Shown in pieces: positions 2,141 to 33,251 of a stretch of 35,823 nt of DNA. Source of the stretch: Deltaproteobacteria bacterium (GTDB lineage: Bacteria; Desulfobacterota; Dissulfuribacteria; Dissulfuribacterales; UBA3076); the NCBI GenBank assembly GCA_021159445.1, contig JAGGRV010000409.1, positions 1 to 35,823 on the forward strand, in the 5' to 3' direction. Positions within the stretch are counted from its first letter, which is position 1; every line of letters starts with the position of its first letter. The notes below the pieces were generated by a model that was given only the letters and a program-made list of their open reading frames with translations, did no database searches and was not told the DNA's origin. The translations under genes and the position numbers were made by a program.

Positions 2141-2901
2141 CACCACGTGACTTCTAGAGCCTTTACCTCGCAATAAACCGTTACATCGCTCGTGAGCACG
2201 TCCGTGACAGTAAACACCACGGACGCCTTAGTGAGTAGGCCGTACCTGTTCAAGTCCGTCCACTCGCCAGTTAAGTCCGTCGCCGTTAGCTCGACTGTTT
2301 CGCCGTTGCGTTTGTAGAGCACGAGCTTGACGGAGACACCGCTAACGGTCTGGTACCAGACCCTAAGCAACATAACGTAGTTACCTGCGTTCTCAGGCTC
2401 TATATCGATAGAATATGATGTATCTATTGGCTCGTACGCGGGGATAGTTATCTCGTGCCTCGTGTGCTGTACGTCGACGAAGCCGAACTGTGTCAGGAAC
2501 GTGTAGGGGTCTGCTATCGAGACGCCCAACATCTTCGCTATGTCGACCATCGCGTCTTTGTCGAGTCCTAGCATCGCGAAGTAGTTGAAGATTGCGTTCG
2601 CGTGCTTGTTTACTGTCTCGCCCCCGTGGTGCTGGAGCACGTACCACAGGCGCTCGGCGAAGGAGACGTACTGCTGGGTCTTGGCGTACTCGTTCGGGTA
2701 CCTCTCCAGCACGCGCCTGACTATCGAGAGGATGTTGCTGAACTGAACCTGGTACTCCACCACGCGCTCCTTAGCGAGGGGCTTGACATTGTCGATGACC
2801 TCGCCTATGACGTCGCCGCGCATCTTAACGTCCCACATCCTGATCCTGCCAACAGGGGACTGGTCTATGGACCTCCTACGCCTCCTCCCCATCCGAACCA
2901 C
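2140..2901 (-). CDS. Capsid-protein paralogue: N-terminal domain homologous to the 124-aa protein at 5138..5512, fused to a beta-rich C-terminal domain
   Basis: VGRIRMWDVK...YVSFAERLWYVLQHHGGETVNKHANAIFNYFAMLGLDKDAMVDIAKML aligns without gaps to IDRIRKYEVK...LYLAFARKLYKHVSRTGGEAASKVASGLKSYFVTAYGADPAILDEIINVV. The N-terminus has a basic GRRRRRS arm. Confidence 0.6.
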   Translation of the reverse strand: MVRMGRRRRRSIDQSPVGRIRMWDVKMRGDVIGEVIDNVKPLAKERVVEYQVQFSNILSIVRRVLERYPNEYAKTQQYVSFAERLWYVLQHHGGETVNKHANAIFNYFAMLGLDKDAMVDIAKMLGVSIADPYTFLTQFGFVDVQHTRHEITIPAYEPIDTSYSIDIEPENAGNYVMLLRVWYQTVSGVSVKLVLYKRNGETVELTATDLTGEWTDLNRYGLLTKASVVFTVTDVLTSDVTVYCEVKALEVTW

Positions 2902-2906
2902 CCCAT

Positions 2907-3500
2907 TTACCTAGTTATTGTGATCTTGTACACGACACGCACCTTGTCCCCCGCCTTCGCACTTACAGGCGTCGACAGGACGTCCCTGAAGATCAGGAAA
3001 GCCGCCGACGACGGCACGAAGTCGCCGAGGGTCGGGTCGAACACCTGCGCGCTGCACATCAGCTTCGCACCTACCTCACTCACGTCCACGTTCGTGTCAA
3101 CAGGGATCACGCCAGTCACGACGAAGCTCATTTCTGTGTCGCCGAACGTGACGTCCTCTATGCTGGCGTCGGCGCACCCGATCTCGGCCTCTAGCTTGTA
3201 GTCGCTGTTTGAAGGCGCGGTCGTGCCCGTGCCTATGCAGACCCTAGTCTTGAAGTCGCCCCAGTACGCATAGTCCCAGCAGTCGACCGAGTTACCCGTG
3301 ACAACAATCGCTGACTGACCACTTTCCTCGGTCAAGCCTGAGACAGACTTCGTTGAGCCCTGCGCGACACTAAGAAGCACCACCTGGAAAAGCCTGATGA
3401 AGTTGTCGAGTGTCAGGTTGATCTCCTGCACGCGCCTGTCCCTAACCCTGTCACACGCGTCAAGAACCTCAACAACCAGGGTACCTGTCACGCGCGCCAT
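2907..3500 (-). CDS. Putative structural protein, paralogue A of a tandem pair
   Basis: Shares NLxLxNF, CWD, GTGTTAPxxxDxKL and FRDVLSxxxxxxAGDxxxVxYxIxIxR with the adjacent ORF 3507..4106. Confidence 0.6.
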   Translation of the reverse strand: MARVTGTLVVEVLDACDRVRDRRVQEINLTLDNFIRLFQVVLLSVAQGSTKSVSGLTEESGQSAIVVTGNSVDCWDYAYWGDFKTRVCIGTGTTAPSNSDYKLEAEIGCADASIEDVTFGDTEMSFVVTGVIPVDTNVDVSEVGAKLMCSAQVFDPTLGDFVPSSAAFLIFRDVLSTPVSAKAGDKVRVVYKITITR

Positions 3501-3506
3501 ACCCGA

Positions 3507-4106
3507 TCACCTCTGTATATTGATCTGGTAAGTAACCTCGATACGGTCACCCGCGTACACGTCAAGGCCATCCGAAAGCACGTCCCTAAAGAACAAGATC
3601 CTGTTAACCTCGTACGTGTCCGCCGTCGGCACATACGTCCCAGCCTCTAGCGAGAGCCCGATCTCCCAGACCGTGGCGTTGCTAGGTATGTCGATGTAGC
3701 CCCCTATCTTGATGTAGGGCGGGGACGCAGATAGGTCAACCTCTGTCACGTCGGCCGTGCCCTCCGCAAGCTTCGCATAGAGCTTGCAGTCTGTCGGTCC
3801 TGGCGCAGTGTTGTCCGTCCCGCACTCGACATAGTACTGCTTCGGCGCAAGCGAGCAGAAGTCCCAGCAACCAGGTGCGTTACCGATCATGAACTGACAC
3901 ACGTCACCGTCCTCGGCCGTGAAGCTCCCCACGTACGCGTACTGCCCCTTGTTGACGCCGCCGAACAACGTCCTCAGCAGGTACAGGAAGTTGTTGAGTA
4001 CGAGGTTTGCTGGCTGCTCCCTACGTTCCCTGAGCTTACCGTCGCGCGTATAAACCTCAACAATCACTTTCGACGTGATTTGGAGGCCTTTACCCATGGG
4101 GTTCAC
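3507..4106 (-). CDS. Putative structural protein, paralogue B of a tandem pair
   Basis: Collinear similarity to 2907..3500 over the full length (199 vs 197 aa). Confidence 0.6.
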   Translation of the reverse strand: MNPMGKGLQITSKVIVEVYTRDGKLRERREQPANLVLNNFLYLLRTLFGGVNKGQYAYVGSFTAEDGDVCQFMIGNAPGCWDFCSLAPKQYYVECGTDNTAPGPTDCKLYAKLAEGTADVTEVDLSASPPYIKIGGYIDIPSNATVWEIGLSLEAGTYVPTADTYEVNRILFFRDVLSDGLDVYAGDRIEVTYQINIQR

Positions 4107-4125
4107 CCCACGAAAGAGAATTGTT

Positions 4126-5070
4126 CTAGCTAGATAAAACCTTTGTCACGGTATAGGACACGCTAACGCCTGGGCCCTGCACACTAACGCCAGGGTACCT
4201 CACGCTCCCGCTAACACCCAGTGAAGGCCCAGACACGTCCACGCGCGGGTACCTGGTCTCGTACGCTATGCTAAGCGAGGGTCCAGAGACGTTGACTCGC
4301 CACCACATATGCAGTTCCAGGCCTACGGTAAGCGACGGGCCCGACACGTCGACACGCGGGTACCTCGTTGTCGGGGACACTGATATTATTGGTCCTGAGA
4401 CGTCGGCGCGCGGGTACCTGTAGGCGTAGGACACGGCTATTGAGGGGCCAGGCACCGACACCAGCCTATACACTATCGTGAGTAGCGAGACAGTAAACTT
4501 CGGGCCGGTCACGTCCGTGCGCGGGTACCTGAGCCAGGGACGTACGCGAAACCTCTTGATATATCCTAATTTATTATATTGTATATAGCTCTGCACCGAC
4601 ACCCTCACGTCTATGCCCGAAACGAACGCGAGCACGTGCTCAAGCGCGTCCGCAAGCTTCCTCAGGAACGTTATCTGGCTGTTCACGTCCTTCGCGGACA
4701 CGTAGTCGCCGTAGCTCACGTAACGCATGTTTACTGTCTCGCTACTGAGAGCGGAGTAGTCACTCCGTAGCCACGGCCTGGACAGTACAAGTCGGTAGAA
4801 CCAGTCGGTGACAGCCCTCGCGTTGTCGACCCTGTCGTTGTTGTCCTCTGGCAGGATCACGTCGATTAGGTTACGCACGCGCCTGAGCGTCTTAAGCTGA
4901 GGCGGGTCTAGCTTGGGCGGGAGCGAGTCGAAGAACTGCTTAACCACGTCCCAGGCCTCGGCGAGGATGTTGTGGTGCTGAGCGTCCACCACCTGCCCGT
5001 GCCTGACCTCACCCAACCTAGAAAGGACCTTGCGCAGTCGCTTAACGTGCTCGACAGACATCCCAAACAC
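4126..5070 (-). CDS. Repeat protein: helical N-terminal half plus 7 tandem repeats of R(YP)RVDVSGPSLxVS (15-22 aa) in the C-terminal half
   Basis: RYPRTDVTGPKF, RLVSVPGPSI, RYPRADVSGPII, RYPRVDVSGPSL, RVNVSGPSL, RYPRVDVSGPSL, RYPGVSVQGPGV. Repeats of CGCGGGTACCT are visible at the DNA level between 4190 and 4530. Confidence 0.65.
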   Translation of the reverse strand: MFGMSVEHVKRLRKVLSRLGEVRHGQVVDAQHHNILAEAWDVVKQFFDSLPPKLDPPQLKTLRRVRNLIDVILPEDNNDRVDNARAVTDWFYRLVLSRPWLRSDYSALSSETVNMRYVSYGDYVSAKDVNSQITFLRKLADALEHVLAFVSGIDVRVSVQSYIQYNKLGYIKRFRVRPWLRYPRTDVTGPKFTVSLLTIVYRLVSVPGPSIAVSYAYRYPRADVSGPIISVSPTTRYPRVDVSGPSLTVGLELHMWWRVNVSGPSLSIAYETRYPRVDVSGPSLGVSGSVRYPGVSVQGPGVSVSYTVTKVLSS

Positions 5071-5085
5071 CTAAGGAATGTGTGT

Positions 5086-5121
5086 AGGGAAAAAAGAGGG
5101 GTTTTTGAGAGGGGAAAAACC
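5086..5121 (-). terminator. Hairpin plus T-tract terminator downstream of the capsid gene
   Basis: Minus-strand reading: GGTTTTT-CCCCTCTC-AAAAACC followed by CCTCTTTTTTCCC. Confidence 0.5.
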
Positions 5122-5137
5122 TACCTAGCTAAGGGGG

Positions 5138-5512
5138 TTAGTACGGCACTGCGTAGCCGACGACAACGTTGATTATCTCGTCGAGGATCGCTGGGTCTGC
5201 GCCGTAGGCCGTCACAAAGTAGCTCTTGAGGCCGCTCGCGACCTTGGAAGCCGCCTCTCCGCCAGTCCTGCTAACGTGCTTGTACAGCTTCCTGGCGAAG
5301 GCCAGGTACAGAGCCTTCATCGTACCCGTGACACCGTACTTGTCCAGTATCGGCCTAACAAGGTCGTCTATGCCTGCGAACGTGATGAGACCCTCCTGAG
5401 CCCTCTCGATCGCCAGGTCCTTAACGTCGGTGAACCTGGTGCTGACGACGGTCGGGTTGAACTTGACCTCGTACTTCCTAATCCTGTCTATACCCTTCCT
5501 GTACATGGGCAT
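5138..5512 (-). CDS. Putative major capsid protein of the rudivirus/lipothrixvirus (SIRV2 P134-like) helical MCP family
   Basis: 124 aa. FNPTVVSTRFTDV and KYGVTGTMKALYLAFARKLYKHVSRTGGEAASKVASGLKSYFVTAYGADPAILDEIINVVVG resemble, from memory, the SIRV MCP pattern (FSNPTVASTILSNV ... YGITGPNRAIYQGFGLK...GGGPALVNMINGLKGYYISAFNANPQVLDAVVNIITG). It has its own terminator. Confidence 0.6.
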   Translation of the reverse strand: MPMYRKGIDRIRKYEVKFNPTVVSTRFTDVKDLAIERAQEGLITFAGIDDLVRPILDKYGVTGTMKALYLAFARKLYKHVSRTGGEAASKVASGLKSYFVTAYGADPAILDEIINVVVGYAVPY

Positions 5513-5608
5513 ACCCTACGACCCCCCAAACCTCTTTTCTTCGGTAAAGACCTAACCAAAGAGATTATTTATCCAAGAGTCGCAACGCACATTATGGAGG
5601 TGTTGACT

Positions 5609-5971
5609 ATGTCGGGTTCTTCCCCAGACACGAGAAAGAACGGTTCCAAACCCGAACACGACATGAAGCTGCTGCAGTACATCACGTTCGCGCTCCGCGA
5701 ACTCGAGATAGTAAACAAGTTCTTCCTGTACAGGACACGCAGGATAGCGCAGGCCGGGCTCCCGATCGTGGCAAGCACGTACATGTTCAGGGACGGCCCG
5801 AGCGTTTACCTTGTGTGCGCACTGCACTGTTTCCCGAGCAACGAGTCGCTCGCGCAGGTGATGAAGGAACTTGCCAAGCTCGAGCGCGTCGACAGGTACA
5901 GGATAAAGAAAGAACTTAACTTGGAAGAATTCGAGGAATATCTTTCGGAGGTGGAAGAGGATGGCGGTTGA
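5609..5971 (+). CDS. Hypothetical protein (120 aa)
   Basis: This is the C-terminal part of ORF 5276..5971. The ATG at 5609 is preceded by GGAGGTG. The upstream extension overlaps the capsid gene on the opposite strand. Confidence 0.55.
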   Translation: MSGSSPDTRKNGSKPEHDMKLLQYITFALRELEIVNKFFLYRTRRIAQAGLPIVASTYMFRDGPSVYLVCALHCFPSNESLAQVMKELAKLERVDRYRIKKELNLEEFEEYLSEVEEDGG

Positions 5972-6131
5972 GGCATATACCGTGATCCTCCCCAAGCCAG
6001 TCGCGGAGAAGCTGAAGCAGATAGCGGACAGGTACGGGCTAACAATAAACGATGTCTTCGCTATGGCGATTAAGGAGTTGCTGGAGAAAGAGGAGAAAAG
6101 AGAGGGAAAGAGGAGGGGGGTTAGGGCATGA
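5961..6131 (+). CDS. Ribbon-helix-helix (CopG/Arc-like) DNA-binding protein, 56 aa
   Basis: My own translation, below the ORF-track cutoff: MAVEAYTVILPKPVAEKLKQIADRYGLTINDVFAMAIKELLEKEEKREGKRRGVRA. It has a beta strand, helix, turn, helix layout. The stop overlaps the next start as ATGA. Confidence 0.6.
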   Translation: MAVEAYTVILPKPVAEKLKQIADRYGLTINDVFAMAIKELLEKEEKREGKRRGVRA

Positions 6132-14492: not shown

Positions 14493-14789
14493 ATGACCAG
14501 GAAAGAGTATACAACAATATTGATTAGTAAAGAAGACCGTGACCTGCTCAAGAGGTACAGGGAGGCGGGTAGGTGGCGCGGGATCGCCGAAATGGTCGTC
14601 GACGTAATAAACCGGACAGGGTGCAAAGAAGACGAGCTACCTCAGTGGTACGGGCCCAGGTGCCCACACTGCGAAGGTCCATTATCGCAAAAGTTCGCCA
14701 GCGCAAGGCTCGTGTGTCTACGTTGCGGGAGGGAGTACGAGCTCAGGGAGGTTAAGCCCGTGCGATACAGTAAACAGGGCGGTGGCTAG
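14493..14789 (+). CDS. Ribbon-helix-helix plus C-terminal zinc-ribbon protein
   Basis: TTILISKEDRDLLKRYREAG...GIAEMVVDVI forms the RHH layout. CPHC ... CLRC forms the zinc ribbon. Confidence 0.6.
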   Translation: MTRKEYTTILISKEDRDLLKRYREAGRWRGIAEMVVDVINRTGCKEDELPQWYGPRCPHCEGPLSQKFASARLVCLRCGREYELREVKPVRYSKQGGG

Positions 14790-14792
14790 CAC

Positions 14793-15110
14793 ATGGTTTA
14801 CTGCCCCCTGTGCGGGAAGAAACTCGAGGGTTTGGCCTGGAGACTGCGCGTGTGTAAAGCCTGTAAAGTGATCTATACCGTCCTCGAGGACTCGGAGTAT
14901 GGCGACCTCTACTGCGTCGCGAAAGTCGCCGACCTCGAGAAACTAGAGCTCGAAGACATCATCGACGCGCTCAAGAAACTCGCGGACGAGGTCAAGGCAG
15001 ACGACGCCTGGAGCCAACTCGCTAAGGCTCTCGGGCAGTGGCTTGAGAGGTACCTGCTTAGCCTGAGCGGAGGCGGAGACAGTAAACAAGAGGGAACAGA
15101 GACGCGTTAA
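14793..15110 (+). CDS. Zinc-ribbon protein
   Basis: CPLCGKKL...CKACK at the N-terminus, with an acidic helical tail. Confidence 0.55.
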   Translation: MVYCPLCGKKLEGLAWRLRVCKACKVIYTVLEDSEYGDLYCVAKVADLEKLELEDIIDALKKLADEVKADDAWSQLAKALGQWLERYLLSLSGGGDSKQEGTETR

Positions 15111-17652: not shown

Positions 17653-17760
17653 TCCCACCACCTCCGCACAATACCAAAACTGCATTAACTAATAAACTTT
17701 TTGTATGGTACACACGTAACAAACCGCTTCACAGCGTTTGGTATGTTTGGTAAGTACCGA

Positions 17761-17814
17761 AGCGGGCCGTTTAGTGGCGGTCTAAATTAATTTTAAATTA
17801 ATTTGTTCCGCCAC
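17761..17814. repeat. Copy 1 of a 54-bp direct repeat: GC clamp GTGGCGG/CCGCCAC enclosing a 27-nt AT-only core
   Basis: AGCGGGCCGTTTAGTGGCGGTCTAAATTAATTTTAAATTAATTTGTTCCGCCAC. The core holds two copies of the palindrome AAATTAATTT. Confidence 0.85.
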
Positions 17815-17904
17815 GCTAAGCAGGGCTACGGTACACACCAAATACACAACATGTTTGATATTGCTTGCGCGCACCAAAAATATTGTTGCTTTGGTATGTA
17901 CTGT

Positions 17905-17958
17905 AGCGGGCCGTAGGGTGGCGGTCTAAATTAATTTTAAATTAATTTGTTCCGCCAC
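17905..17958. repeat. Copy 2 of the 54-bp direct repeat, offset exactly 144 bp
   Basis: AGCGGGCCGTAGGGTGGCGGTCTAAATTAATTTTAAATTAATTTGTTCCGCCAC. It differs from copy 1 at 3 positions. Both copies are preceded by TTTGGTATGT. Confidence 0.85.
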
Positions 17959-17977
17959 TGAACGGCCGACTTTGGTA

Positions 17978-18006
17978 CGCACCAAAAACACTAAATTTTT
18001 GGTGCG
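17978..18006 (-). terminator. 11-bp-stem hairpin spanning the helicase stop codon (CGCACCAAAAA / TTTTTGGTGCG)
   Basis: Stem 17978-17988 and 17996-18006, loop CACTAAA. The stem includes a U5 tract in the minus-strand RNA. Confidence 0.4.
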
Positions 18007-19370: not shown

Positions 19371-20502
19371 TTAACCACCTCCAGAACCTCATAACCTCCA
19401 GCTTCACCTTCCCGAAGCGCGAAAGCAGAAGCGTCACGAAGTTGTGGTCGCAGTCGAGCCTCGTACAGAGTCCGACGCGCTTCAGCACGCACGCGCCCCT
19501 GTGGTCAAGGCCCCAGTAACAGTAGCGCCAGCCCTGCGTCACGGCGGGCCTCGTGTTCGCAGGGTCCTCACCCTGGACGTCCCAGAGAAACTCCGCGAAC
19601 TCCTCCACGTGCCTCGAGTCAGCGTTGATCATCCTGAGCGCCGCACCGAGGTTGTATTCGACTATGCCCCATGTCGACCGGCAGTGCTTCACGTCGCTAC
19701 TCGTCCTGTAGTCCCTGTACGGTACTATCCATTTCTTCTCCTTAAGTAGAGACTTCAGAACCCTGTAATAACCTTCGCAACCGAGCCTCTTAGCGATGTA
19801 CATCAGGCACGCGACAGCCTCGACCCAGGACCTCCACGAAACGCCGCCGACAGTAGCGATTTCTCCTTTCGGCGCAAGCGACCCGTTTACTGTGTGCCTT
19901 TCCTCAGCCGCGGCGTAGAGGACCTCGATCCCGAACGACCTAAACACCCACTCGACCTCCCTCAACGTAGCGAGACCCTCGAAAGGCCACGGCGCGTCAG
20001 GGTGCTTCCTGTACCTAAACACCTTACCCTCTGCACGTAATGCGCTGGGCGCCGCTATGACGTACCCGAACGTCTTAACGTCGTATGGGTACCTGAAACG
20101 TAGCCTGGCACCGAGCTCGTCAGAACCCGCCTTCAACACCACGTGGACACCACCGCTCGCGGTGAACTCCACGTAGGCGCCTTCGCGTGCGAGCAGGTTC
20201 CACAGGCTCTCGAAACGCTTCACAGGCACCTTCTCGGCGTCGAAGTCGAAGATCACGAGGTAGTTAGGGCCTCCAGGCAGTCCGTAGGCAAAGGCCCTGC
20301 CGCTACGTATGTTCTCGACGGCCCTCTCAGTCACAGACCTCCAAACAGCAAGGTTCGTCTCGGTAGGCTCGTACCTTATGCCCTTGGGGAGTATAGGCGC
20401 CTTCGCCTCGTCCAGGGTCTTTCCCCTGCCTCTGACGCTAAGTATATAAAAACCGCCCTCAAACAGTTTCTCGACTACCCAACGCAGGCTTACCTGACCC
20501 AT
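19354..20502 (-). CDS. Bifunctional primase-polymerase (PrimPol, archaeo-eukaryotic primase superfamily)
   Basis: AEP motif I is LVIFDFDAEK (DxD), motif II is TASGGVHVVL (sGGxH) and motif III is YDVKTFGYVIAAPS. The likely start is MGQVSL at 20502, after GGGAGG. The 3' end overlaps the helicase start by 17 nt. Confidence 0.8.
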   Translation of the reverse strand: MGQVSLRWVVEKLFEGGFYILSVRGRGKTLDEAKAPILPKGIRYEPTETNLAVWRSVTERAVENIRSGRAFAYGLPGGPNYLVIFDFDAEKVPVKRFESLWNLLAREGAYVEFTASGGVHVVLKAGSDELGARLRFRYPYDVKTFGYVIAAPSALRAEGKVFRYRKHPDAPWPFEGLATLREVEWVFRSFGIEVLYAAAEERHTVNGSLAPKGEIATVGGVSWRSWVEAVACLMYIAKRLGCEGYYRVLKSLLKEKKWIVPYRDYRTSSDVKHCRSTWGIVEYNLGAALRMINADSRHVEEFAEFLWDVQGEDPANTRPAVTQGWRYCYWGLDHRGACVLKRVGLCTRLDCDHNFVTLLLSRFGKVKLEVMRFWRWLNAKRK

Positions 20503-21432: not shown

Positions 21433-21927
21433 GTGGTCAAGTACCTTCTCCTTGGTGTCTCTGCTTTGTCAGGCGTCGTCGGCGTCGAGTTCAAGGGCAC
21501 GATAAAGAAGTCGCTGTTCGAGGACGTCGTTGACGCTCTTAGGGAGGGTAGGGACATCACGAAGGAAGTTTCAAGAATCTACAAGGAGGTTAACGTAACA
21601 CTGCACGAGCTGGTGCCAATGGGTTCGACGGTTGCACGTGCACTGAAGGATGACAAAGTCGTAGCGTATGCTGTCATTAGCAAGGCTGTTTCGGTGCATA
21701 TCGTCATAGCGTCAATCTACAGTGAAAAGAGGACGGTTGTGGTTATTACGCCAGGGGCACCGAACGATGCCTACGTCCTAAAGGCGTTAGAAACTGTCAT
21801 GCACCGCCTGGTACCAGGGAGCACTGTCGAGGTCTTTGTCGCTGGCTGGCGCAGATACGCAAAGCTGGACGAAGTGATCGTTGAGATACCGAAGAAGGGT
21901 AACGAGACAGTAAACATGTTCCTGTAG
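21433..21927 (+). CDS. Hypothetical protein with an N-terminal hydrophobic (signal/TM-like) segment
   Basis: MVKYLLLGVSALSGVVGV. GTG start after AGGAGGTGA. The C-terminus carries the ETVN 12-mer. Confidence 0.55.
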   Translation: MVKYLLLGVSALSGVVGVEFKGTIKKSLFEDVVDALREGRDITKEVSRIYKEVNVTLHELVPMGSTVARALKDDKVVAYAVISKAVSVHIVIASIYSEKRTVVVITPGAPNDAYVLKALETVMHRLVPGSTVEVFVAGWRRYAKLDEVIVEIPKKGNETVNMFL

Positions 21928-21933: not shown

Positions 21934-22335
21934 TTGGGGAACGTGGCCGATTACGTCCGCGAGTTCAAGATAGAGAGAATTCATAACGATATTCTGGAGG
22001 TGTTAGACCACGGTACAAGGATAAACCTTGATATCAACGGCGAGCCGTTCTGGCTGCGTTTCAGCATATACCCCGACGCCGATGGCAACAGGTACCTTAT
22101 CGTTGTGTGCAGCGACCCGCACGTGCATGAGTTTAGCGCAAGGATGGTGAGGCTTCCCGACGACCTCGCAAAGGCTGTGACAGAGTGCGAGTGGTTGGAC
22201 AGCAACGCGCTGAGGGAGCTCTGGGAGCGGTTAATGGCAAGGGCCTACGGTGATCCGCCAGGTTACTTCGACGACTTCGTCGACGAGATACTGAAGTGGC
22301 TAAGGGACACGTGCATAAAGAAACAGAGGCAGTAA
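21934..22335 (+). CDS. Hypothetical protein
   Basis: ORF of 133 aa. Start uncertain (TTG at 21934 or GTG at 21943). The stop codon TAA is supplied by the motif variant GAGGCAGTAAAC at 22326. Confidence 0.55.
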   Translation: MGNVADYVREFKIERIHNDILEVLDHGTRINLDINGEPFWLRFSIYPDADGNRYLIVVCSDPHVHEFSARMVRLPDDLAKAVTECEWLDSNALRELWERLMARAYGDPPGYFDDFVDEILKWLRDTCIKKQRQ

Positions 22336-22375
22336 ACACACCTTTCTTTCGCCTTTTTCTTCCCCGTTTCCTGAG

Positions 22376-22732
22376 GTGATACACGTGTTCTGCAGGTTCC
22401 TTGCTGATAAGGTCATTCAGATGTATGAGGATGTCGACGCGTTCCTTGCGTGGCTAAGGGACTTGGAGAGGACGAACGGCTTCAAGGTGCGTATCAGCGA
22501 CGGGTACATTGCTGTGCAGGGCCAGATCACCGTCGGCCTGTCGCCGATGGTTGAGCCTCCGTTGAACTACGTTATGTTAGTGCTTGCGGTCTTCGGCGAG
22601 GTCGGTGTTTACTTGCCAGACTTTGGAGATGGGTATGAGGCAGTAAACAAGTGGTGGAGAGAGAACAAGGACAGGTTGCCCAAGCTAGTGAAGCAAGCGC
22701 TCGAGAAACTGAAACAACACCACAAACCTTAA
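22376..22732 (+). CDS. Hypothetical protein
   Basis: ORF of 118 aa, with a GTG start at 22376 or ATG at 22421 (MYEDVDAF). Confidence 0.5.
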   Translation: MIHVFCRFLADKVIQMYEDVDAFLAWLRDLERTNGFKVRISDGYIAVQGQITVGLSPMVEPPLNYVMLVLAVFGEVGVYLPDFGDGYEAVNKWWRENKDRLPKLVKQALEKLKQHHKP

Positions 22733-23757: not shown

Positions 23758-24810
23758 ATGAGGCGTCTCGTGATCCTAGTCAGCAAGGGAGTTTCGTTGA
23801 AGAATGTCGGTGCTGACATTGCGGACGTGGCGAGCGAGAGTGGCTGGGTTGTGCGTCCTGTGTCGGCGATTGCTTCGCCGCACGACGTCATTTCCATCGC
23901 GGACGCCGCCATAATCGTGATGCCTGTTAATCCCGTCGCGGCGGCGCCGTACATGTTGCTTGCTAGGGATCTCAGGGTTAGGAAGTTCCCTGTGGTCTAC
24001 TACGGGCCTGTGGAGGGTAGGCCTAGCCCGCTCGCTATACAGAAGTGGATGCTTGGCAGCTTCCCGATTGTCGCCCCTAGCGAGTACGTTAGGGACAAGC
24101 TCGTTGAGGTGGGGTTCGGCGTCGTCGACGTGGTTAGGCACGGTGTTAACCTTAGGCTTGTGGAGCGTAGCAAGCCGTACTTCGCGATGGCCAGGAACAA
24201 GGTGCGTAGGGGCCTCGAGAACAAGGTCGTGTTCGGTACCGTCGCCTTCTACCACGTCCGGAAAGGGCTTGAGCGGTTGGCGGACGCTATCCGCCTAGTT
24301 ACGCAGGAGGTAAAGGACGTACACTTCATCATTGTCACGACTGACAGGGGCAGGCTCAAGCTCGGCGACCTGCCAAACACCACGATAGAGACCGCGTTCG
24401 GTGCACGCTCAAGGCAGGAGGTGTTTGCGTGGTATTCAGCGCTCGACTGGGTAATTATCCCGTCGCTCGCGGAGGGGTTCGGCCTGCCTTTGATAGAGGC
24501 TAACGCGGTTGGGGCACCTGTCATCCACAACGCCTTGCCTCCGCTCATGGAGATAACGGACGAGACAGTAAACATTGTGTTCCAGTTCGACAACGTGTAC
24601 GAGAAGAACGTGGGGGACGGCATCGTTTACGAGATGCACGACTACAACCCAGAGCGCCTTGCCAAGGCTATCCTGAAGGCGTACGACGAGACAGTAAACG
24701 CCAGGGACGAGTACGTAGAGAGGAAGAAGCGAGCGATCGAGCACGCGCGCAGGTACGACATCAGGAAGCTGTATCCGCACCTGCTCAAGCTACTTAGCGA
24801 GGTGACGTAG
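23758..24810 (+). CDS. Glycosyltransferase, GT-B fold, GT1/GT4-type
   Basis: IPSLAEGFGLPLIEANAVGAPVIH is the classical E-x7-E Glycos_transf_1 signature. The preceding VFGTVAFYHVRKGLERLADAI is typical of the C-terminal Rossmann domain. Confidence 0.8.
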   Translation: MRRLVILVSKGVSLKNVGADIADVASESGWVVRPVSAIASPHDVISIADAAIIVMPVNPVAAAPYMLLARDLRVRKFPVVYYGPVEGRPSPLAIQKWMLGSFPIVAPSEYVRDKLVEVGFGVVDVVRHGVNLRLVERSKPYFAMARNKVRRGLENKVVFGTVAFYHVRKGLERLADAIRLVTQEVKDVHFIIVTTDRGRLKLGDLPNTTIETAFGARSRQEVFAWYSALDWVIIPSLAEGFGLPLIEANAVGAPVIHNALPPLMEITDETVNIVFQFDNVYEKNVGDGIVYEMHDYNPERLAKAILKAYDETVNARDEYVERKKRAIEHARRYDIRKLYPHLLKLLSEVT

Positions 24811-26184: not shown

Positions 26185-26203
26185 ATGTTTTTTGGTTGGG
26201 AGC

Positions 26204-27532
26204 ATGACGTTCCTTACGCGCAGGTACCTCGAGGAACTGACCAAGCAAAAGGAGAAGTACTTTAGCAAGGTCGTTAGTGACGACGCTGTCTACGTCAATT
26301 GGCTTAGGACCTACGACACTGCGGACGTGTTTTACGAGCGTATGCTGCAGGCGCTTACGCTCGCGGACTACTACAACATTAGCTTCATACTGTTGTTCGC
26401 CGAGAACCCGAGCGTTGTCGAGCCCCTCAACATCGAGTTTTCTGTCTCGCTCCCGTCGATAGAGGAGATCCTGCAGGGGATCTACGCGGTTTTCGAGAGC
26501 GTCGACCTCTCCATAGAGTTCCCTGGGCAGATCGACTACCCCAGCTTCGTCGACTACAACATCAGGCCTGAGTACCGTGACCAGGCGAAGGAGCTTGAGA
26601 AGGTGAAGGCGAGGTATGGCATAACCCGCTACGGCGAGGGAGTCTACGACCCTGTCATCGTTGCCGAGTTCGTCCGCAACGTGATCACGCGTTACTGGAT
26701 ACAGTTCCTGGACAGGGAGCTGTTCAGGCGTTGGCTGCAGGAGTACGGTGCGAAGCTGGGTATAGCCAGCGAGGTTCAGGAGCTGGTGTGGGACAGGCTC
26801 GGGTTCGTCGACGTTGCGACCCAGGGCCCGTTCATACTCGGTTTCAGTCGCTTAGGCGAGGGCTGGCTCGTGCCCGAGGGACACGAGTTCGAGCGCGTCC
26901 TTGTCGAGCGTCTAGACGGCGAGATTGTCGAGGTCCCTGTGAGGGAGCCCGACGACTACCACCACGGGTTTGTGCTCGGCGTCAGCAGGCTAGGCTACGA
27001 CATCCTGTCCCCGCGCGGCTCGGCGTTCCTGACGCCTCTCCCGCAGGTGCTTGACGTGATACGCACCAAGGAGTTCAGGCTGCGTAGCAGGTACGTACAC
27101 ACCGCGACCGCCTTCGCCAACTACGTGACTGCCAGGGAACTAACTAGCCCGCACAGGTGCGCGAGGATACACCAGTACCATACCCTACGTATCTACATGC
27201 TGTTCGCTGAGGAAGTCGCCGAGCGCGTGTGTCGCAAGTACAGACTGGACAAGTACACGTGCAACAGGTACCGGACGGCCGCAAGGAACCTACTCGCTCT
27301 TGGACTTAGGCGCCATAGGTGGGGAGAGGAGCCTCTGCGCAACATAGACCTCGACGAGCTTAGGGTGCTGTGGATAGCGAGGTGGGTGAAAGAGGGTTTA
27401 AAAGAGGATATTCTGAACGAGATTTTCGAGGGGTGTAGGCCATGGCTTCAGCACCTGAGAAGCCTCAAGTACCAGGTGGGGGAGCTGGTGAAACAAACGC
27501 GAATATCGCTGGCGAGCTACAGAAAGAGATAA
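26204..27532 (+). CDS. Large hypothetical protein (about 442 aa)
   Basis: ORF 26192..27532, likely ATG at 26204 (MTFLTRRYLEEL). No motif recognised. Confidence 0.6.
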   Translation: MTFLTRRYLEELTKQKEKYFSKVVSDDAVYVNWLRTYDTADVFYERMLQALTLADYYNISFILLFAENPSVVEPLNIEFSVSLPSIEEILQGIYAVFESVDLSIEFPGQIDYPSFVDYNIRPEYRDQAKELEKVKARYGITRYGEGVYDPVIVAEFVRNVITRYWIQFLDRELFRRWLQEYGAKLGIASEVQELVWDRLGFVDVATQGPFILGFSRLGEGWLVPEGHEFERVLVERLDGEIVEVPVREPDDYHHGFVLGVSRLGYDILSPRGSAFLTPLPQVLDVIRTKEFRLRSRYVHTATAFANYVTARELTSPHRCARIHQYHTLRIYMLFAEEVAERVCRKYRLDKYTCNRYRTAARNLLALGLRRHRWGEEPLRNIDLDELRVLWIARWVKEGLKEDILNEIFEGCRPWLQHLRSLKYQVGELVKQTRISLASYRKR

Positions 27533-28005: not shown

Positions 28006-31000
28006 TGGGCGTGCCCCAGCACGTGCCTGACGAACTGTTTACTGTCTCGACAGAGGAGGCAAGGGAGGTCGGTGAGTTAGTAGCGAACATACTCGTGATC
28101 GACATCGAGGAGGCGCGCAAGATAGACCTGAGGCAAGTCGCGAGCGGAACGGCGGGAATCGTAGACCCGATAGGGCAGCTCCAGGCTTGGCTCGCAGACC
28201 AACTCAACGCTCTGGTAAGCGTCATAGTTACCCCGCTGAGCCAGGCTCTCGAGACCGCCAAGGACTGGCTCTATACGCAGATTAGTAACGCGGTGTCTGG
28301 CTTCGTAGACACTATAATAAATACATTTAATGAAATTATTAAGCCCGTTTCGGAGACAGTAAACACCATCTGGACAGGCCTAAACACGCTTATCTCGGCC
28401 ATAGGCGAGCTAAGCAACACGTTCCTCGAGGGCCTTGCCAAGATCGTGGACACTGTCACGAAGGGGTTCACGGAGCTCGGTTCGGTGCTGACGGGCTTCG
28501 TTAACGCAATAATGCAGTTCCCGAACTGGTTCCCCGAGTGGTTCCAGAAATACATCTCGGAGCCGATAGCTAACGCGCTAAGCACGTTGCCGACGGTCTT
28601 TGCGCAGTCGGTCTCTGCGGTCATAGCTACGATAGTTTCGCAGTTGGAGACGTTGTGGAGGTACTTGAGCGACGCTGCCAAGTTCGTGTGGGACAAGCTG
28701 GTGGAGTTCGGTGCGTGGGTGGCGGAGAAGCTTGTCGAGGCAGCTAAGGCGTTCTACAGCTTCCTCGTGGACGCGTCTGCGTCGTTTGAGTCGTTTGTGA
28801 AGGACGTGTTCACGGGCCTGTTCCAGACGGCGTCCGCGTTCGCAGACGCAATGAAGGACTGGCTCGCGAAGGCGCTGAGGGGCGAGGCCGGCGAGCTAGA
28901 CGTCTACATCGGCGTGTCTGGCGTGATACTGAGCGGTTGGTTAGCGGCCATCTCGCTTCCGCGTCTGCTCAAGTCCCTCGCGGGCACGCTCAGGGGCATG
29001 AGGATACCGATCATCGGCGTGTCGCCGGCGTACATAGCGTACGAGGTCGGCGACTACCTTGAGAACCTGATCCACCAGTACGGTAGGCACACGTTGATGG
29101 GCTGGGCACTGGTCGCGTTCGAGCCCCTCCGCTACGTTTGGAGGGGCATCTGGAAGAGGTTCTTCGAGTCCATCGGCTTCGCAGACATACCGTTTGCGTT
29201 GCCTGAGCTGAGCCACGTGAGGGACGTGATCAGGCGCTCGATGGTGTGGGTAGAGGACTTTGCTAAGCTTGTCAAGGGCGAGTTGCCTGACGCGTTCAGG
29301 GACATGTACGAGAGGGCGAAGCTCGTGCTGGAGATGAGGGGGTTCCCGACCTGGTTCATCGAGTACTGGCTAGACCTCGGCCAGAAGTACAGCATGACCG
29401 TCAAGGACAGGTTCGGTACCGAGAGGCTGATGCTGCTCGGGCCCGTCTGGACGGTGCCGACGCACAGTGAGGCAGTCAGGATGCTCCAGAGGGACGTGTT
29501 CCAGTCACCTATGGAGTGGGCGAGGTTCGTAAGGATCTACGGCTGGAGCGAAGACCTGGCCAAGATGTACTACATGCTCTCGTTCAAGTACCCGAGCTTC
29601 AGGGACCTCTGGGCCTTCCTCACGAGAGGCATAGCGGGGATGCTGTGGTATCGCGCACCTGACTTCGTCAAGCGCATCTTCGAGGCCGACGCTAAGTGGC
29701 TGGGCGCCGGCACCCCCGTCGACCCGTACCAGCTAAACTACGACTACAATGCCTTGTTCAGCGCAGTCAACATCTACGCCAAGTGGATACAGATGAGCAA
29801 CTTTAGCTGGTTCAGGAAGGGTGCGAAGCTGAAGTACGGCGACCAGGAGATCACCATCGACTTCGACTGGACGGCGGACAGCTGGCTAACGTTCGACATC
29901 ACGGCGGACATACCGGGCAAGATCGATGCTAGGTGGATGGTTAAGTGGGGCCTGTTCGACCACCTCACGCTCAAGATAGGGAGGAAAGTCGGTGAGGTGT
30001 CGACGTACCCAGAGGAACCGTTCGTTGACTTGGTGCTTAAGGTGCTCGAGAACCAGGCAACGAGCAATGTTGTTATGGACCTCAGGCCGTTTTGCCGCCT
30101 GCTAGTAGCTAACGGCCTACATCCCGCGTGGGTTCCGCTGACTGCTGTCGCCGAGGCCATCAACGCCTTGGCCGACGAGCGTACGCTTCTGAGGACAGGC
30201 TTCATTAACCTGTTCAAGGAGGGGTTCTTCAGCTACGAGACCCTGGACAAGCTGTTGGAGGGCTTCGTGATCGCGTCGTTCATAGTCGAGTACTTCGACG
30301 TGGCGAGTAAGAAGTGGGTTGCTGGCGCCGTGAATGTCCCTGTCAGGTACCTGCCTGCTGAGCGCAGGTTGCTGGAGCTTAGGGCCGTGATGGACAGGGC
30401 CCTTGACATCTTGCGCGACTTCGTGCGTGAGCTCGCGCGTGCCTACCGCGAGTACATCATCAGGGACGTTGACGGGTTCGTTAAGCTCCTTGTCGGCGGC
30501 GTCGAGACAGTAAACACGTGGTTCAGGAAGCTCATGAAGGACATCACGGGCAAGGAGCTTGCGCTCGTGACAGACCTCGACTACTGGAGGGCCTACGCCG
30601 TCGTTCTCCAGCTGGAGCAGCAGGTGTACACGATCCACAGGATGAGGTACTGGGCAAGCAGGTACATCGGCTGGATCCTGTACCGCCTTGCCTACGGCTA
30701 CGTCAGCATAGAAGACGCTAAGAAAGTCATCGAGCTCGTCGGCCAGGCCTGTATGTTGACGCCTCAGGAGATCCAGCTCCTTGAGCAGCTGAGCGAGCTC
30801 CTCATGGGTATCGCGCGCAGGGAGTACATACCGACGCCGTCCCAACTCGCTACGATAGCGGAGGTCGTGCCTGAGGCTAGGGAACTGTTCCCCAAGGTCG
30901 TGGAGGCGAGGAACATACCTGCGGAGTGGGCCGAGATCTGGTGGAAGTACGTGCAGCTGAAGCCGTTGGTCGACGACGTCAGGAGGTACCTGAGCGTGGT

Positions 31001-31508
31001 AGAGGACCTGTACCAGCGCGGGCTCATAGACGAGGACGCGCTGAGGCAGGCCCTCGACGCCTACAAGCAGTTCGGCCTCGAAGACTTTGAGATAGAGATC
31101 AAGGTCAAGACGGCGCAGCTGGAGAGGGCCAAGCAGGCCTGGACGTGGCTGGTCGGTACACCGCGCGAGCTAGTCACCATGGCCGAGTACTCGCCGAAGG
31201 CTAGGAAACTGGCGCTGACCCTCGTGAATAAGCTGATCGAGTCGCTTCCCGTCGACGACGAGACGAAGCAGTTGCTGAAGGAGATGTGGGAAGAGTACAT
31301 CAGGATCAGGCCAGTATCTGGTGAACTGTCGAGGTTCGTGACCGAGCTCATAAGCGACTACGCCGAGGGCATCATCGACGACGCTCAGCTAGAGCAAGAC
31401 CTCGAGTTCCTGAAGAAGTGGGGCTACGACGACTACGAGATAGAGCTAATTAGGGAGATTGCGAAGCGTAGAAGAATGAGGAGGTCAGCAAGGTATGGAG
31501 GCCCGTAA
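28005..31508 (+). CDS. Very large putative structural protein (about 1167 aa); candidate terminal-fibre or tape-measure-like component
   Basis: The N-terminal ~330 aa are long amphipathic/hydrophobic helices (ISNAVSGFVDTIINTFNEIIKPVSETVNTIWTGLNTLISAIGEL...). The C-terminus carries repeated DDxxLxxxLxxLKKxGxxDxEIE modules. Its size and position recall the large minor structural protein of rudiviruses, but this is inference only. Confidence 0.65.
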   Translation: MGVPQHVPDELFTVSTEEAREVGELVANILVIDIEEARKIDLRQVASGTAGIVDPIGQLQAWLADQLNALVSVIVTPLSQALETAKDWLYTQISNAVSGFVDTIINTFNEIIKPVSETVNTIWTGLNTLISAIGELSNTFLEGLAKIVDTVTKGFTELGSVLTGFVNAIMQFPNWFPEWFQKYISEPIANALSTLPTVFAQSVSAVIATIVSQLETLWRYLSDAAKFVWDKLVEFGAWVAEKLVEAAKAFYSFLVDASASFESFVKDVFTGLFQTASAFADAMKDWLAKALRGEAGELDVYIGVSGVILSGWLAAISLPRLLKSLAGTLRGMRIPIIGVSPAYIAYEVGDYLENLIHQYGRHTLMGWALVAFEPLRYVWRGIWKRFFESIGFADIPFALPELSHVRDVIRRSMVWVEDFAKLVKGELPDAFRDMYERAKLVLEMRGFPTWFIEYWLDLGQKYSMTVKDRFGTERLMLLGPVWTVPTHSEAVRMLQRDVFQSPMEWARFVRIYGWSEDLAKMYYMLSFKYPSFRDLWAFLTRGIAGMLWYRAPDFVKRIFEADAKWLGAGTPVDPYQLNYDYNALFSAVNIYAKWIQMSNFSWFRKGAKLKYGDQEITIDFDWTADSWLTFDITADIPGKIDARWMVKWGLFDHLTLKIGRKVGEVSTYPEEPFVDLVLKVLENQATSNVVMDLRPFCRLLVANGLHPAWVPLTAVAEAINALADERTLLRTGFINLFKEGFFSYETLDKLLEGFVIASFIVEYFDVASKKWVAGAVNVPVRYLPAERRLLELRAVMDRALDILRDFVRELARAYREYIIRDVDGFVKLLVGGVETVNTWFRKLMKDITGKELALVTDLDYWRAYAVVLQLEQQVYTIHRMRYWASRYIGWILYRLAYGYVSIEDAKKVIELVGQACMLTPQEIQLLEQLSELLMGIARREYIPTPSQLATIAEVVPEARELFPKVVEARNIPAEWAEIWWKYVQLKPLVDDVRRYLSVVEDLYQRGLIDEDALRQALDAYKQFGLEDFEIEIKVKTAQLERAKQAWTWLVGTPRELVTMAEYSPKARKLALTLVNKLIESLPVDDETKQLLKEMWEEYIRIRPVSGELSRFVTELISDYAEGIIDDAQLEQDLEFLKKWGYDDYEIELIREIAKRRRMRRSARYGGP

Positions 31509-31758: not shown

Positions 31759-31900
31759 AGAGATTGATGAAAGGCTTAAGAAGCTGATTGACTCGCTAGA
31801 GGCCGTGCTGGAGTCGCTGGAGAAAGAGGTTGAGTCTACGCTTAAAGCGCTCGAAAGAGAGTCGGGCCTGCAACCAAAGCCTCTTAGGAGGCGGAGGTAG
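31748..31900 (+). CDS. Possible 50-aa coiled-coil protein
   Basis: My own translation: MASKEIDERLKKLIDSLEAVLESLEKEVESTLKALERESGLQPKPLRRRR. It overlaps the upstream stop and is followed by a T7 tract. Confidence 0.4.
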   Translation: MASKEIDERLKKLIDSLEAVLESLEKEVESTLKALERESGLQPKPLRRRR

Positions 31901-31914
31901 CTATTTACCAACCT

Positions 31915-31930
31915 CACCCTTTTTTTCTCG
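31915..31930 (+). terminator. T-tract terminator (CACCCTTTTTTTCTCG)
   Basis: A run of 7 T lies right after the last gene of the 27.7-31.9 kb block. Confidence 0.45.
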
Positions 31931-32484
31931 TGCCTCATGAGCGAATATTTTCCTCGGTATTTTCTCTGTGCAAAAGAGAATTTACCATCGTTTGTAAAAT
32001 CTGCACAAACCGTTTGCGAAAGATTAGTCGTGACGAATTACGACGTGTGCCGCGGAGAGCTTGGTAAACGTAGGTTTACGTTTGTCCAGGACGGCATTGA
32101 CATTTTGGACAGAGATTTCCCAAAACTCTTTCGAAGGGACGAAAGGGAGCACGCGGCCGACTTTGGTACGCCAACTCTTTGGAACGGGGGACATGGCGTC
32201 TCCAGCCCCGACCCTGCGCTGGCCCGCAATAGGAGGGGTGTCCGAGGCGTTTGCGGACGTTTTTTTCTCTTTCGCCTAGGTGAAGCTGGGACTGAGCTCC
32301 GACTCAGCTCTATATGACCTATATGCGGTGTTATATACGATTCCTCTTTTCCGACTGGCCCTAGGTCACCTATAGAGGTCTAGATAGATACTGCATGATT
32401 TATCATGCGGAATGCGCATCCCCGTTAATATACAGTAAATTTATGAGATATAGACGCGGGTTTCACGTGTTGGAGGTGGTGCGT

Positions 32485-32619
32485 ATGGTAAAGAGGAAGA
32501 TACCAGTCTTTGTTTGTCCGGACTTCAGCGAGTGCTGGGGCTACTGGGAATGCCTTGTGCAGGGCTGGGATCCTGACAGGGACTGCGTCAAAGTAGCTGA
32601 GGTGGAGGTGGAGGAGTGA
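32485..32619 (+). CDS. Small Cys-rich protein (44 aa)
   Basis: MVKRKIPVFVCPDFSECWGYWECLVQGWDPDRDCVKVAEVEVEE, ATG preceded by GGAGGTGGTG. The upstream part of ORF 32395..32619 looks non-coding. Confidence 0.45.
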   Translation: MVKRKIPVFVCPDFSECWGYWECLVQGWDPDRDCVKVAEVEVEE

Positions 32620-32768
32620 TGGTGTTGGAGGTGTTGAAGGCGATATTCCTGTACAACCCCCTGATGTGGATGGTGTACGCCGGCATAGCGTACGCACTCA
32701 TCGACATGTTCCTTAGGTGGCTAGAGAAGAGGCTCAGCAGGCGCGTGAGGTCAGCAAACTGCGACTGA
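32619..32768 (+). CDS. Small single-pass membrane protein (49 aa)
   Basis: My own translation: MVLEVLKAIFLYNPLMWMVYAGIAYALIDMFLRWLEKRLSRRVRSANCD. TGATG coupling with the upstream gene. Confidence 0.4.
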   Translation: MVLEVLKAIFLYNPLMWMVYAGIAYALIDMFLRWLEKRLSRRVRSANCD

Positions 32769-32840
32769 GGCGTGTGCTGGCGTTTTCCGTGTCGAAAAAC
32801 ACTTGTTTTTCTCTTTCCTTTCTCTTTCCTGGGGGTTGCT

Positions 32841-33251
32841 ATGTCGTGGCTCGGGCTCCGTCACAAGGGGTATGAGCGTTTGTACCCTGACGAGTGGAAC
32901 GCTGTTGTGGACGGCTTGGATATCCTGTACATTTACGCGGCGGAGATCAGGGAGCGCGTGAAGTATAGCAAGAGCGACTACGGCGTGTTTACTGTCTCCG
33001 GCGACGGCGTAAACAACGACCTACTCCTAGGGCAGCATAAGCTGCCTGTGGACGTGACTGACCCTAGCAAGGTAGTTGTCGAGTGCACGCCTGTGTCTCC
33101 AGACGCCATCGATGCTAGCCCAGTCACGTGCTACCTCTCGGACGAGGACGGCGACGGCGTGTACGAGAGCGTCAGGGCAAGGTTCCACAAGGCGCCCGCT
33201 AGCGGTACAGACAACGTGAAGGTTAGTTACTATATTGAATACTTTGGGTAA
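32841..33251 (+). CDS. Hypothetical protein
   Basis: ORF 32772..33251, likely ATG at 32841 (MSWLGLRHKGYERLYPDEWNAVVDGL). Confidence 0.5.
   Translation: MSWLGLRHKGYERLYPDEWNAVVDGLDILYIYAAEIRERVKYSKSDYGVFTVSGDGVNNDLLLGQHKLPVDVTDPSKVVVECTPVSPDAIDASPVTCYLSDEDGDGVYESVRARFHKAPASGTDNVKVSYYIEYFG

Follow-up and report, generated by a model that had tools for sequence, protein, structure and literature searches.

Introduction

What is a word of 12 nucleotides doing when it is written again and again into the genes of one small viral genome? The question is raised by contig JAGGRV010000409.1 (NCBI GenBank assembly GCA_021159445.1), the whole 35,823 nt of which were analyzed here and are referred to as the window, and by the 12-mer GAGACAGTAAAC, which is dispersed over both of its strands. 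A first-pass annotation made from the letters of the window had reported the repeated 12-mer, had taken the DNA for that of an archaeal virus with inverted terminal repeats (ITRs) and had listed several candidate roles, namely a recognition site for a packaging or genome-condensing protein, a polar signal of the Chi/KOPS type, a site for primase or helicase loading or for nicking, and an RNA-level signal in the mRNAs.

The literature offers little precedent. In print, the 12-mer turned up solely among the PCR primers of unrelated papers, no account of a dispersed word of this kind in archaeal viruses was found, and a search for packaging signals in Adnaviria returned no paper. To our knowledge, no cis-acting packaging signal outside the termini has been described for rod-shaped archaeal viruses.

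In this study, the word was counted against shuffled sequences, its copies were placed relative to genes and to aligned relatives, and about 35 related contigs were scanned for words of the same kind. The word is selected at the DNA level, and it is proposed to be a lineage-specific tag that is read in trans.

Enrichment and consensus

When both strands of the window were scanned, 13 exact copies of GAGACAGTAAAC were found, seven on the plus strand and six on the minus strand, and each coincided in coordinate and strand with a copy in the first-pass annotation. No copy appeared in 100 dinucleotide-preserving shuffles. Codon-preserving shuffles, which had been put forward as a check, left the word far above the null, shuffled genes giving a mean of 0.004 copies and a maximum of one against the 13 of the window. 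With up to one mismatch, 25 sites were found against 0.34 expected; with up to two mismatches, there were 35 against 3.22 expected, the largest value in any shuffle being 11. With the ITRs left out, the word and its sub-words were the top k-mers at each k from 8 to 14.

Two variants, A4 to G and T8 to A, occur three times each among the copies, and the consensus GAGRCAGWAAAC was used for this reason. With its flanks it reads S-GAG[A/G]CAG[T/A]AAAC-A, and it has 19 copies against 0.01 expected. These recurrent tolerated variants look more like the degeneracy of a binding site than like random decay. The flanking bias that had been claimed was also recovered: C or G precedes 12 of the 13 exact copies and A follows 11 of them. 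The remaining flanks are unrelated; the word is conserved over 12 nt, with one further biased position at either end.

The earlier list of variants was correct in its entries but incomplete. Those at 2204, 6817, 7205, 10416, 11846, 14764, 22326 and 22637 are present with one mismatch, and two in minus orientation, at 14796 and 19885, are present with two mismatches; one-mismatch copies at 5705, 9576, 18837 and 26437 had been missed. The statement that the motif is absent from the ITRs holds for copies with up to one mismatch, but a two-mismatch copy, AAGACAGAAAAC, lies at 619 and 35194 within the repeat. Outside the window, a scan of IMG/VR with a 14-mer version of the word gave single chance matches only, and a phage collection held no nucleotide match to the window.

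Selection at the DNA level

The word is selected as DNA. All 13 exact copies lie in open reading frames (ORFs), ten in sense and three in antisense orientation. Nine of the ten sense copies read GAG ACA GTA AAC, that is E-T-V-N, in one shared frame, and all three antisense copies read F-T-V-S. A peptide repeat was considered and rejected, because 10 of the 11 ETVN tetrapeptides in the whole genome are written with the same four codons; two of these codons, ACA and GTA, are minor ones. A compositional artefact was likewise rejected, because shuffles give next to no copies. Even synonymous-codon shuffles that keep every protein give 0.28 copies of GAGACAGTAAAC, with a maximum of three, against 13.

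Codon usage also predicts how the copies should be oriented. A sense-to-antisense ratio of about 70:30 is expected and 10:3 is observed for the exact copies, and the two open sense frames are expected at about 19:1 and observed at 9:1. Since these preferences of frame and orientation match the codon-usage prediction, they do not point to polarity relative to transcription. Taken alone, the three exact antisense copies exceed expectation by about one to three thousandfold.

These data bear directly on the suggestion that the word acts in the viral mRNAs as a site of binding, cleavage or pairing. Such a role would be in keeping with ten of the 13 exact copies being sense and nine lying in one reading frame. 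However, the sense bias is the one predicted by codon usage, the antisense exact copies are themselves far above expectation, and neither a conserved flanking sequence or structure nor an Rfam match was found. Because three exact and two consensus copies are antisense to genes, a function in mRNA is disfavoured, and we regard it as very improbable.

Placement of the copies

A uniform distribution accounts for where the 19 consensus copies lie (Kolmogorov-Smirnov p = 0.79), and the word is spaced at about one copy per 1.4-2.7 kb. Coding sequence holds 16 of the 19 (11 sense, five antisense) and three are intergenic. The view that the dispersed word is not tied to intergenic regions, promoters or terminators is therefore sustained, the positions being uniform and mostly inside genes. 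A module-boundary or recombination motif was rejected, since no enrichment of copies was found near gene boundaries. The promoters of the window are TATATA-type boxes and its ribosome-binding sites are GGTGGT or GAGGTG; a promoter element was rejected because the intergenic copies are few and are placed inconsistently relative to both.

Orientation was examined in the same way. The exact copies show no switch between the genome halves (plus/minus 2/4 on the left and 5/2 on the right; Fisher p = 0.29), and the 19 consensus copies show none between the divergently transcribed halves (Fisher p = 0.37). With the 10:3 sense excess attributable to codon usage, a polar role of the Chi/KOPS type is not supported. 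Chi and KOPS/AIMS, which DNA-processing machines read, resemble the word in being over-represented oligomers in coding DNA, but they have 5-8 nt and a strong replication-linked skew, whereas the word has 12-14 nt and no polarity.

Replication could use the copies in other ways. The window encodes a PrimPol (19354-20502) and a helicase (17991-19370) that have no homologue in the related contigs, just as the word is missing from them, and the copies might be priming, helicase-loading or nicking sites of this lineage-specific module. However, no strand bias towards the ends or around the centre was seen, the words of the sister lineages described below are palindromes, and replication elements are better matched in appearance by the repeat clusters at 17700-18006 and 7823-8614. 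The recognition sites known for primases span 3-5 nt. A word of 12-14 bp without strand bias fits this earlier suggestion poorly, and we judge it quite improbable. The word may also bear some likeness to the archaeal origin recognition boxes (ORB and mini-ORB), which cluster at an AT-rich unwinding element and are bound by Orc1/Cdc6, but the clustering test went against it: the copies are uniform, with none in the repeat regions 17700-18006 or 7823-8614. No Orc1/Cdc6 gene was found in the window.

A different precedent is provided by the stoperators of Cluster A mycobacteriophages, which are bound by the L5 repressor gp71. By this account the copies would be operators at which a viral repressor binds to dispersed sites, bringing about genome-wide silencing or superinfection immunity. 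The stoperator is likewise asymmetric, has about 13 bp and roughly 20-35 dispersed copies, and differs in sequence between related viruses; the word of the window is also asymmetric, with 12-14 bp and about 19-30 copies per genome, and specificity varies between lineages. In addition, 11 of the 16 genic consensus copies point along transcription, and three consensus copies lie in promoter or leader regions. On the other hand, stoperators are mainly found in short gaps between genes, run in a single direction with respect to transcription and belong to an identifiable immunity repressor, whereas 16 of the 19 consensus copies are in coding sequence and their orientation bias is that expected from codon usage. 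No repressor-like, integrase or lysogeny gene was detected in the window with Pfam and PHROGs, a search limited by the fact that most small ORFs have no detectable family. Furthermore, positions in the sister lineage are not conserved relative to genes. A stoperator-like function is thus considered decidedly unlikely.

The individual exact copies can be followed from left to right. The first, at 2608-2619(-), is sense (E-T-V-N) in ORF 2140-2901(-), which contains a domain like that of the major capsid protein (MCP). ORF 4126-5070(-) carries two copies in opposite orientations, one antisense at 4487-4498(+), which reads F-T-V-S, and one sense (ETVN) at 4729-4740(-); the C-terminal half of its 314-aa product consists of about eight degenerate repeats of the RYPRVDVSGPS-L-V type. 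Sense ETVN copies follow at 10724-10735(-) in the 461-aa ORF 10445-11830(-) and at 13340-13351(-) in the Cas4-like nuclease gene 13193-13915(-). The sense copy at 15076-15087(+) in ORF 14793-15110(+) is the sole one in the second open frame (D-S-K). ETVN is again read in sense at 21904-21915(+), which ends 12 nt before the stop of ORF 21433-21927(+), and at 24562-24573(+) and 24688-24699(+), both in the glycosyltransferase gene 23797-24810(+), the latter at a variable position. The gene for a 1165-aa protein, 28011-31508(+), holds three copies: one antisense (FTVS) near its 5' end at 28037-28048(-), and two sense (ETVN) at 28353-28364(+) and 30504-30515(+). The last copy, at 32987-32998(-), is antisense (FTVS) in ORF 32772-33251(+).

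Six further copies complete the consensus set. Three are GAGACAGAAAAC: that at 9576-9587(+) is intergenic and upstream of gene 8603-9514(-), that at 11846-11857(-) is intergenic between a TATA-like box and the start of gene 10445-11830(-), and that at 26437-26448(-) is antisense in ORF 26204-27532(+). The other three are GAGGCAGTAAAC, which is antisense at the 5' end of the Hjc gene 10002-10433(-) (10416-10427, plus), provides with its TAA the stop codon of ORF 21943-22335(+) (22326-22337, plus) and is sense, read as EAVN, in ORF 22385-22732(+) (22637-22648, plus).

Six sites with one mismatch lie outside the consensus. GTGACAGTAAAC at 2204-2215(+) is antisense in ORF 2140-2901(-), and GAGATAGTAAAC at 5705-5716(+) stands in a region of uncertain gene model, probably antisense in 5552-5995(-). 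AAGACAGTAAAC at 6817-6828(+) belongs to ORF 6720-7133(+) or 6676-7053(+), and GAGACAGTCAAC at 7205-7216(+) is intergenic. GAGACGGTAAAC at 18837-18848(-), in the helicase gene 17991-19370(-), is a synonymous variant that still encodes ETVN. Finally, GATACAGTAAAC at 14764-14775(+) pairs across a gene junction with the inverted two-mismatch copy at 14796-14807; this inverted pair of degenerate copies, spanning 14764-14807 (ACAGTAAAC ... GTTTACTGC), brackets the ribosome-binding site and start codon of ORF 14793-15110.

Origin of the copies by substitution

At the sites that could be aligned, comparison shows that the word arose in place through point substitutions, some synonymous and some altering the amino acid, where the protein tolerates change. 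In the glycosyltransferase, the first ETVN, encoded by the copy at 24562, is matched with no gap by `NETG' in the glycogen synthase GlgA of Pyrococcus abyssi. The closest relative found, with an amino-acid identity of 60-63% in three genes, is L131, a contig of the same study. At the 28353 site it has GAC GTG GTC AAC (DVVN), in the context SDVVNN compared with SETVNT in the window, and at the 30504 site it has TCC GCA GTC AAC (SAVN), in the context VSAVNE compared with VETVNT. Opposite the antisense copy of the window it has CGG ATT GTA ATT AGC. The alignments to L131 and GlgA are free of gaps at 24562, 28037, 28353, 30504 and 26437, and across eight to ten relatives the positions of the copies in the protein are variable.

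Gap-free alignments in which codons and residues differ indicate that the word was written by substitution and not by 12-bp insertion. A mobile insertion would have been suggested by the length of exactly 12 bp, by the frame-preserving copies and by the rudivirus-like genome, since 12-bp indels are found in rudiviruses. These indels and the capsid lattice of SIRV2 and AFV1 share the realm and the 12-bp unit with the case described here; however, the indels vary in sequence and change length, whereas the word is one sequence, arises by substitution and shows no 12-bp register. A mobile 12-bp insertion or mini-element was rejected on the alignments with relatives and with the solved homologue at the sites tested, just as codon identity and shuffles rule out a peptide repeat and a compositional origin. 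Taken together, an insertion, a peptide repeat and an artefact of composition are scarcely credible explanations.

Words in related genomes

About 35 related contigs were gathered via the 1165-aa structural protein and the MCP. The word of the window occurs in none of them, even at one mismatch, and this includes L131 as well as L238, a related virus of similar GC that shares its sample with the window and has zero copies. A search of related viral genomes, as proposed in the first-pass annotation, thus failed to find the word itself but uncovered other dispersed words in some of the relatives.

The clearest case is a sister lineage represented by two contigs. L130 (identical to L239; 11 kb) has eight copies of the palindrome CACAGCTGTG and three near-copies, and L240 (20 kb), which comes from a different sample, has 16 CACAGCTG sites. 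The dispersed word CACAGCTG(TG) is common to both, with unrelated flanks. The two contigs are collinear and show 30-52% amino-acid identity in three aligned genes, but none of the sites are at homologous positions. As judged from these alignments, the lineage is shown to keep its word and the density of the word while individual copies turn over.

Weaker dispersed palindromic words were found in two further pairs of contigs. In L242/L246 the word is TAAGGCCTTA-like, AGGCCT occurring 11 times in 15.8 kb of DNA of 34% GC, and in L234/L237 it is TACACATGTA, with six copies per contig. Apparent words in L229, L236, L238, L245, L137 and L254 proved to be protein, tandem or terminal repeats and were discarded. 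In the cultured viruses SIFV and ARV2 nothing comparable was found, their top words being promoter-like with -log10 P of at most 9, compared with 39 for the window. Since related uncultured viruses have words of their own that behave alike, dispersed words are probably a trait that recurs and evolves fast, and not peculiar to a single genome.

Two contigs of this set showed features of their own. An ORF of L254 (5638-6288) resembles, when read by eye, a ribbon-helix-helix N-terminus joined to a zinc-ribbon C-terminus; it has internal tandem repeats (CTGTTAACAGATCGTATACA) and no homologue in the window, and it holds one AGACAGTAAACA, which agrees with the word of the window at 12 of 14 consensus bases, possibly by coincidence. 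The MCP-encoding viral contig L233 ends in a CRISPR-like array (about 60-480, minus strand) with at least six units of a 37-nt repeat, GATGCAAAAGGAAAATCCCATTAAAGGGAATTGAAAG, which has no match in any reference genome.

Embedded in the sister words are palindromes of the classical 6-bp kind (CAGCTG, AGGCCT and ACATGT-like), which resemble Type II sites and raise the case of a DNA modification target. The copies would then be epigenetic or self marks set by a methyltransferase or a system related to restriction-modification. A restriction-modification site, however, would have 4-8 bp or be bipartite and come with a cognate methyltransferase, and the word, a contiguous asymmetric 12-mer, does not fit this description. 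It is also unlike any methyltransferase site known to us, and genomes normally avoid restriction sites instead of enriching them. The window showed no DNA methyltransferase; the sole methyltransferase found is a generic S-adenosylmethionine (SAM)-dependent protein of the Methyltransf_11/23 type that is widespread in these viruses. We hold a modification target to be highly improbable.

Uptake sequences and the host

In its population genetics, the word behaves, by analogy, like the DNA uptake sequences of bacteria. The DNA uptake sequence (DUS) of Neisseria, a 12-mer, and the uptake signal sequence (USS) of Haemophilus are over-represented exact words of 9-12 bp that occur in both orientations and mostly in genes, as in the window. 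They, too, have preferred reading frames, arise by point substitution and form lineage `dialects', and, as in the sister word of L130 and L240, their density is kept while their positions turn over. Unlike the word of the window, whose carrier is a virus, they belong to cellular genomes, where the competence machinery reads them as DNA is imported; for the virus, the comparison implies no uptake system.

This resemblance gives some weight to a word imposed by the host, through its recombination and repair, its DNA import or its chromosome organization, which the virus would mimic or inherit. The words differ by lineage and yet are common to L130 and L240 from different samples, as if hosts differed; turnover of positions at constant density is a signature of USS, DUS and Chi; and the frame-biased embedding in coding DNA resembles USS. 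Against it stand the lack of polarity, the length of 12-14 bp, longer than any Chi, and the absence of copies from L238 (same sample, similar GC) and L131 (same study). DUS and USS are enriched in the genome of the cell that takes up the DNA. In the cellular DNA examined, 414 kb of Thermococcus metagenome-assembled genome, no copy of the 12-mer occurs and the core 8-mer is not enriched; this point is weak, as Thermococcus may not be the host. A host-imposed word is considered unlikely. Other searches for a host gave as little: 499 Thermococcales CRISPR spacers had no real match to the window or its relatives, and methyltransferase and Hjc searches of genomes gave no useful lead.

The carrier genome

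Judged from its gene content and ends, the window is the linear genome of a rudivirus-like member of Adnaviria. The MCP gene lies in the left arm at 5138-5512(-); its product matches a profile of the MCPs of relatives with E = 1e-57 and 42 Rudiviridae records at 37-39% identity. When the longest ORF is called naively, that of the opposite strand (5276-5971, plus) hides this gene. A second MCP-like domain, detected with the same capsid profile, is contained in the 253-aa ORF 2140-2901(-). The ends are a perfect 643-bp ITR (1-643 and 35181-35823), which holds 2.5 copies of a 48-bp tandem repeat (483-603). With a rudivirus-type MCP and a linear genome bounded by ITRs, the earlier attribution to an archaeal virus is upheld. 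A deep-sea hydrothermal origin is suggested, going by sample names only.

Independent JGI, ENA and Logan assemblies carry this genome at 99.9-100% identity, and their agreement indicates that the word is not an assembly artefact. At 99.9-100% identity, these close variants are uninformative on the conservation of the word.

In addition to the PrimPol and helicase, a Cas4-like nuclease, Hjc, a B116-like protein, two GT4 glycosyltransferases, the SAM-dependent methyltransferase and a ConA-like lectin are encoded. Directly upstream of the helicase-PrimPol genes, the intergenic repeat region 17700-18006 contains a 144-bp direct repeat, 121-nt inverted arms and AT-rich TAAATTAATTT doublets, and it is a candidate internal replication origin. 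A strict 36-bp-periodic array of about 21 units (nnGGTT[AG]AGGCAC[GA]A...CGTGA[AG]G) occupies 7823-8614. It is open in a minus-strand frame only, where JGI calls a 265-aa gene that has no Pfam match and whose codon usage ranks with the least gene-like of the genome; the array either encodes a protein built of 12-residue repeats or is non-coding, an array of iterons (36 = 3 x 12 bp). A single copy of its best word, GGTTAAGGCACGA, is also located immediately inside each ITR (695, plus; 34973, minus, with one mismatch). The neighbouring gene 8603-9514(-) encodes a 303-aa protein that matches PHROG `transposase' families (E = 5e-16); by eye, its central segment appears similar to the helix-hairpin-helix domain of IS110-type transposases, without the catalytic N-terminal domain.

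A proposed tag read in trans

A word that is selected as DNA, works independently of orientation, is evenly spread and lineage-specific, and has a sister counterpart whose positions turn over, points to a genome-wide recognition tag. We propose that the word is a lineage-specific, DNA-level tag whose density is maintained and which is read by a trans-acting, sequence-specific factor, and we put the probability of this reading at roughly 45%. The copies would serve one factor, concerned with the entire viral genome, as multiple high-affinity sites rather than as gene-specific regulatory sites, and it would be their number that selection or molecular drive maintains. Reading on double-stranded DNA is the most likely mode, given the two orientations, the three exact and two consensus copies that are antisense and the three intergenic copies. 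The observation itself is solid and the general mechanism is reasonably supported.

What the tag might be for is a more doubtful matter. Of the roles listed in the first-pass annotation, a recognition site for a packaging or condensing protein is the one retained. In this version, which we prefer although it is the weakest step of the argument and, taken alone, rather improbable, the tag would mark viral DNA for encapsidation or condensation, its copies acting as dispersed nucleation points for the rudivirus-type capsid-protein dimer with its 12-bp footprint on A-form DNA. This version is put forward because, in the virions of SIRV2 and AFV1, 12 bp of A-DNA are covered per MCP dimer (PMC5517147) and the window encodes an MCP of that type. 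Carried further, some filamentous viruses of the Adnaviria could use a lineage-specific `assembly or kin-recognition code' of dispersed 10-12-bp words, each as long as the footprint of one capsomer and read by the capsid dimer or a partner protein, which would select the virus's own double-stranded (ds) DNA and nucleate its wrapping, and whose fast change would isolate lineages; such a code is rather unlikely.

Among viruses, the nearest formal analogues of the word are the Cluster A stoperators and the dispersed packaging signals found in single-stranded (ss) RNA viruses. In MS2 and STNV, dispersed signals act collectively, and the coat protein selects and condenses the genome through them (PMC5699041, PMC4751978). 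As in the window, many short copies of a motif run through coding sequence; however, the ssRNA-virus signals are degenerate RNA stem-loops, whereas the word is an exact dsDNA word without conserved structure.

Several points weigh against a tag read in trans, and most of them against its reading by the capsid. Adnaviria capsid proteins are thought to touch mainly the DNA backbone, and we know of no sequence preference among them. No tag is detectable in several relatives that possess the same capsid protein, which implies that a tag is not needed for assembly in the family. The sister tags are palindromic, whereas the word of the window is asymmetric, and an exact conservation of 24-26 bits is more than most protein sites need. 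No phasing of the copies was found at 12 bp or at 10.5-11.2 bp (Rayleigh p = 0.83-0.87 for a 12-bp register). With Pfam and PHROGs, no HTH, RHH or other sequence-specific DNA-binding domain was found among the proteins of the window, and no gene family shared only by tag-bearing genomes was found. Finally, the reader may be encoded by the host.

The concept is a variant of known genome-wide recognition words; the new case is a 12-mer inside the genes of a dsDNA archaeal virus. Also new are its creation in place by substitution, its absence from relatives, the sister words with turnover of positions and the match to the 12-bp footprint of the capsomer.

Implications

The word is costly enough to have altered protein sequences, and its discovery indicates that scans for over-represented k-mers can expose functional DNA signals hidden in viral coding sequence. 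Whichever reader is involved, be it the capsid, another viral protein or a host factor, the word provides a handle for binding work in an uncultured system. As a 12-mer with about 20 copies, it is a precise and experimentally simple candidate for the way in which rod-shaped archaeal viruses choose their DNA. If the word is indeed part of an assembly code, it would be the first sequence-specific packaging signal in the realm and a dsDNA counterpart of the dispersed signals of ssRNA viruses.

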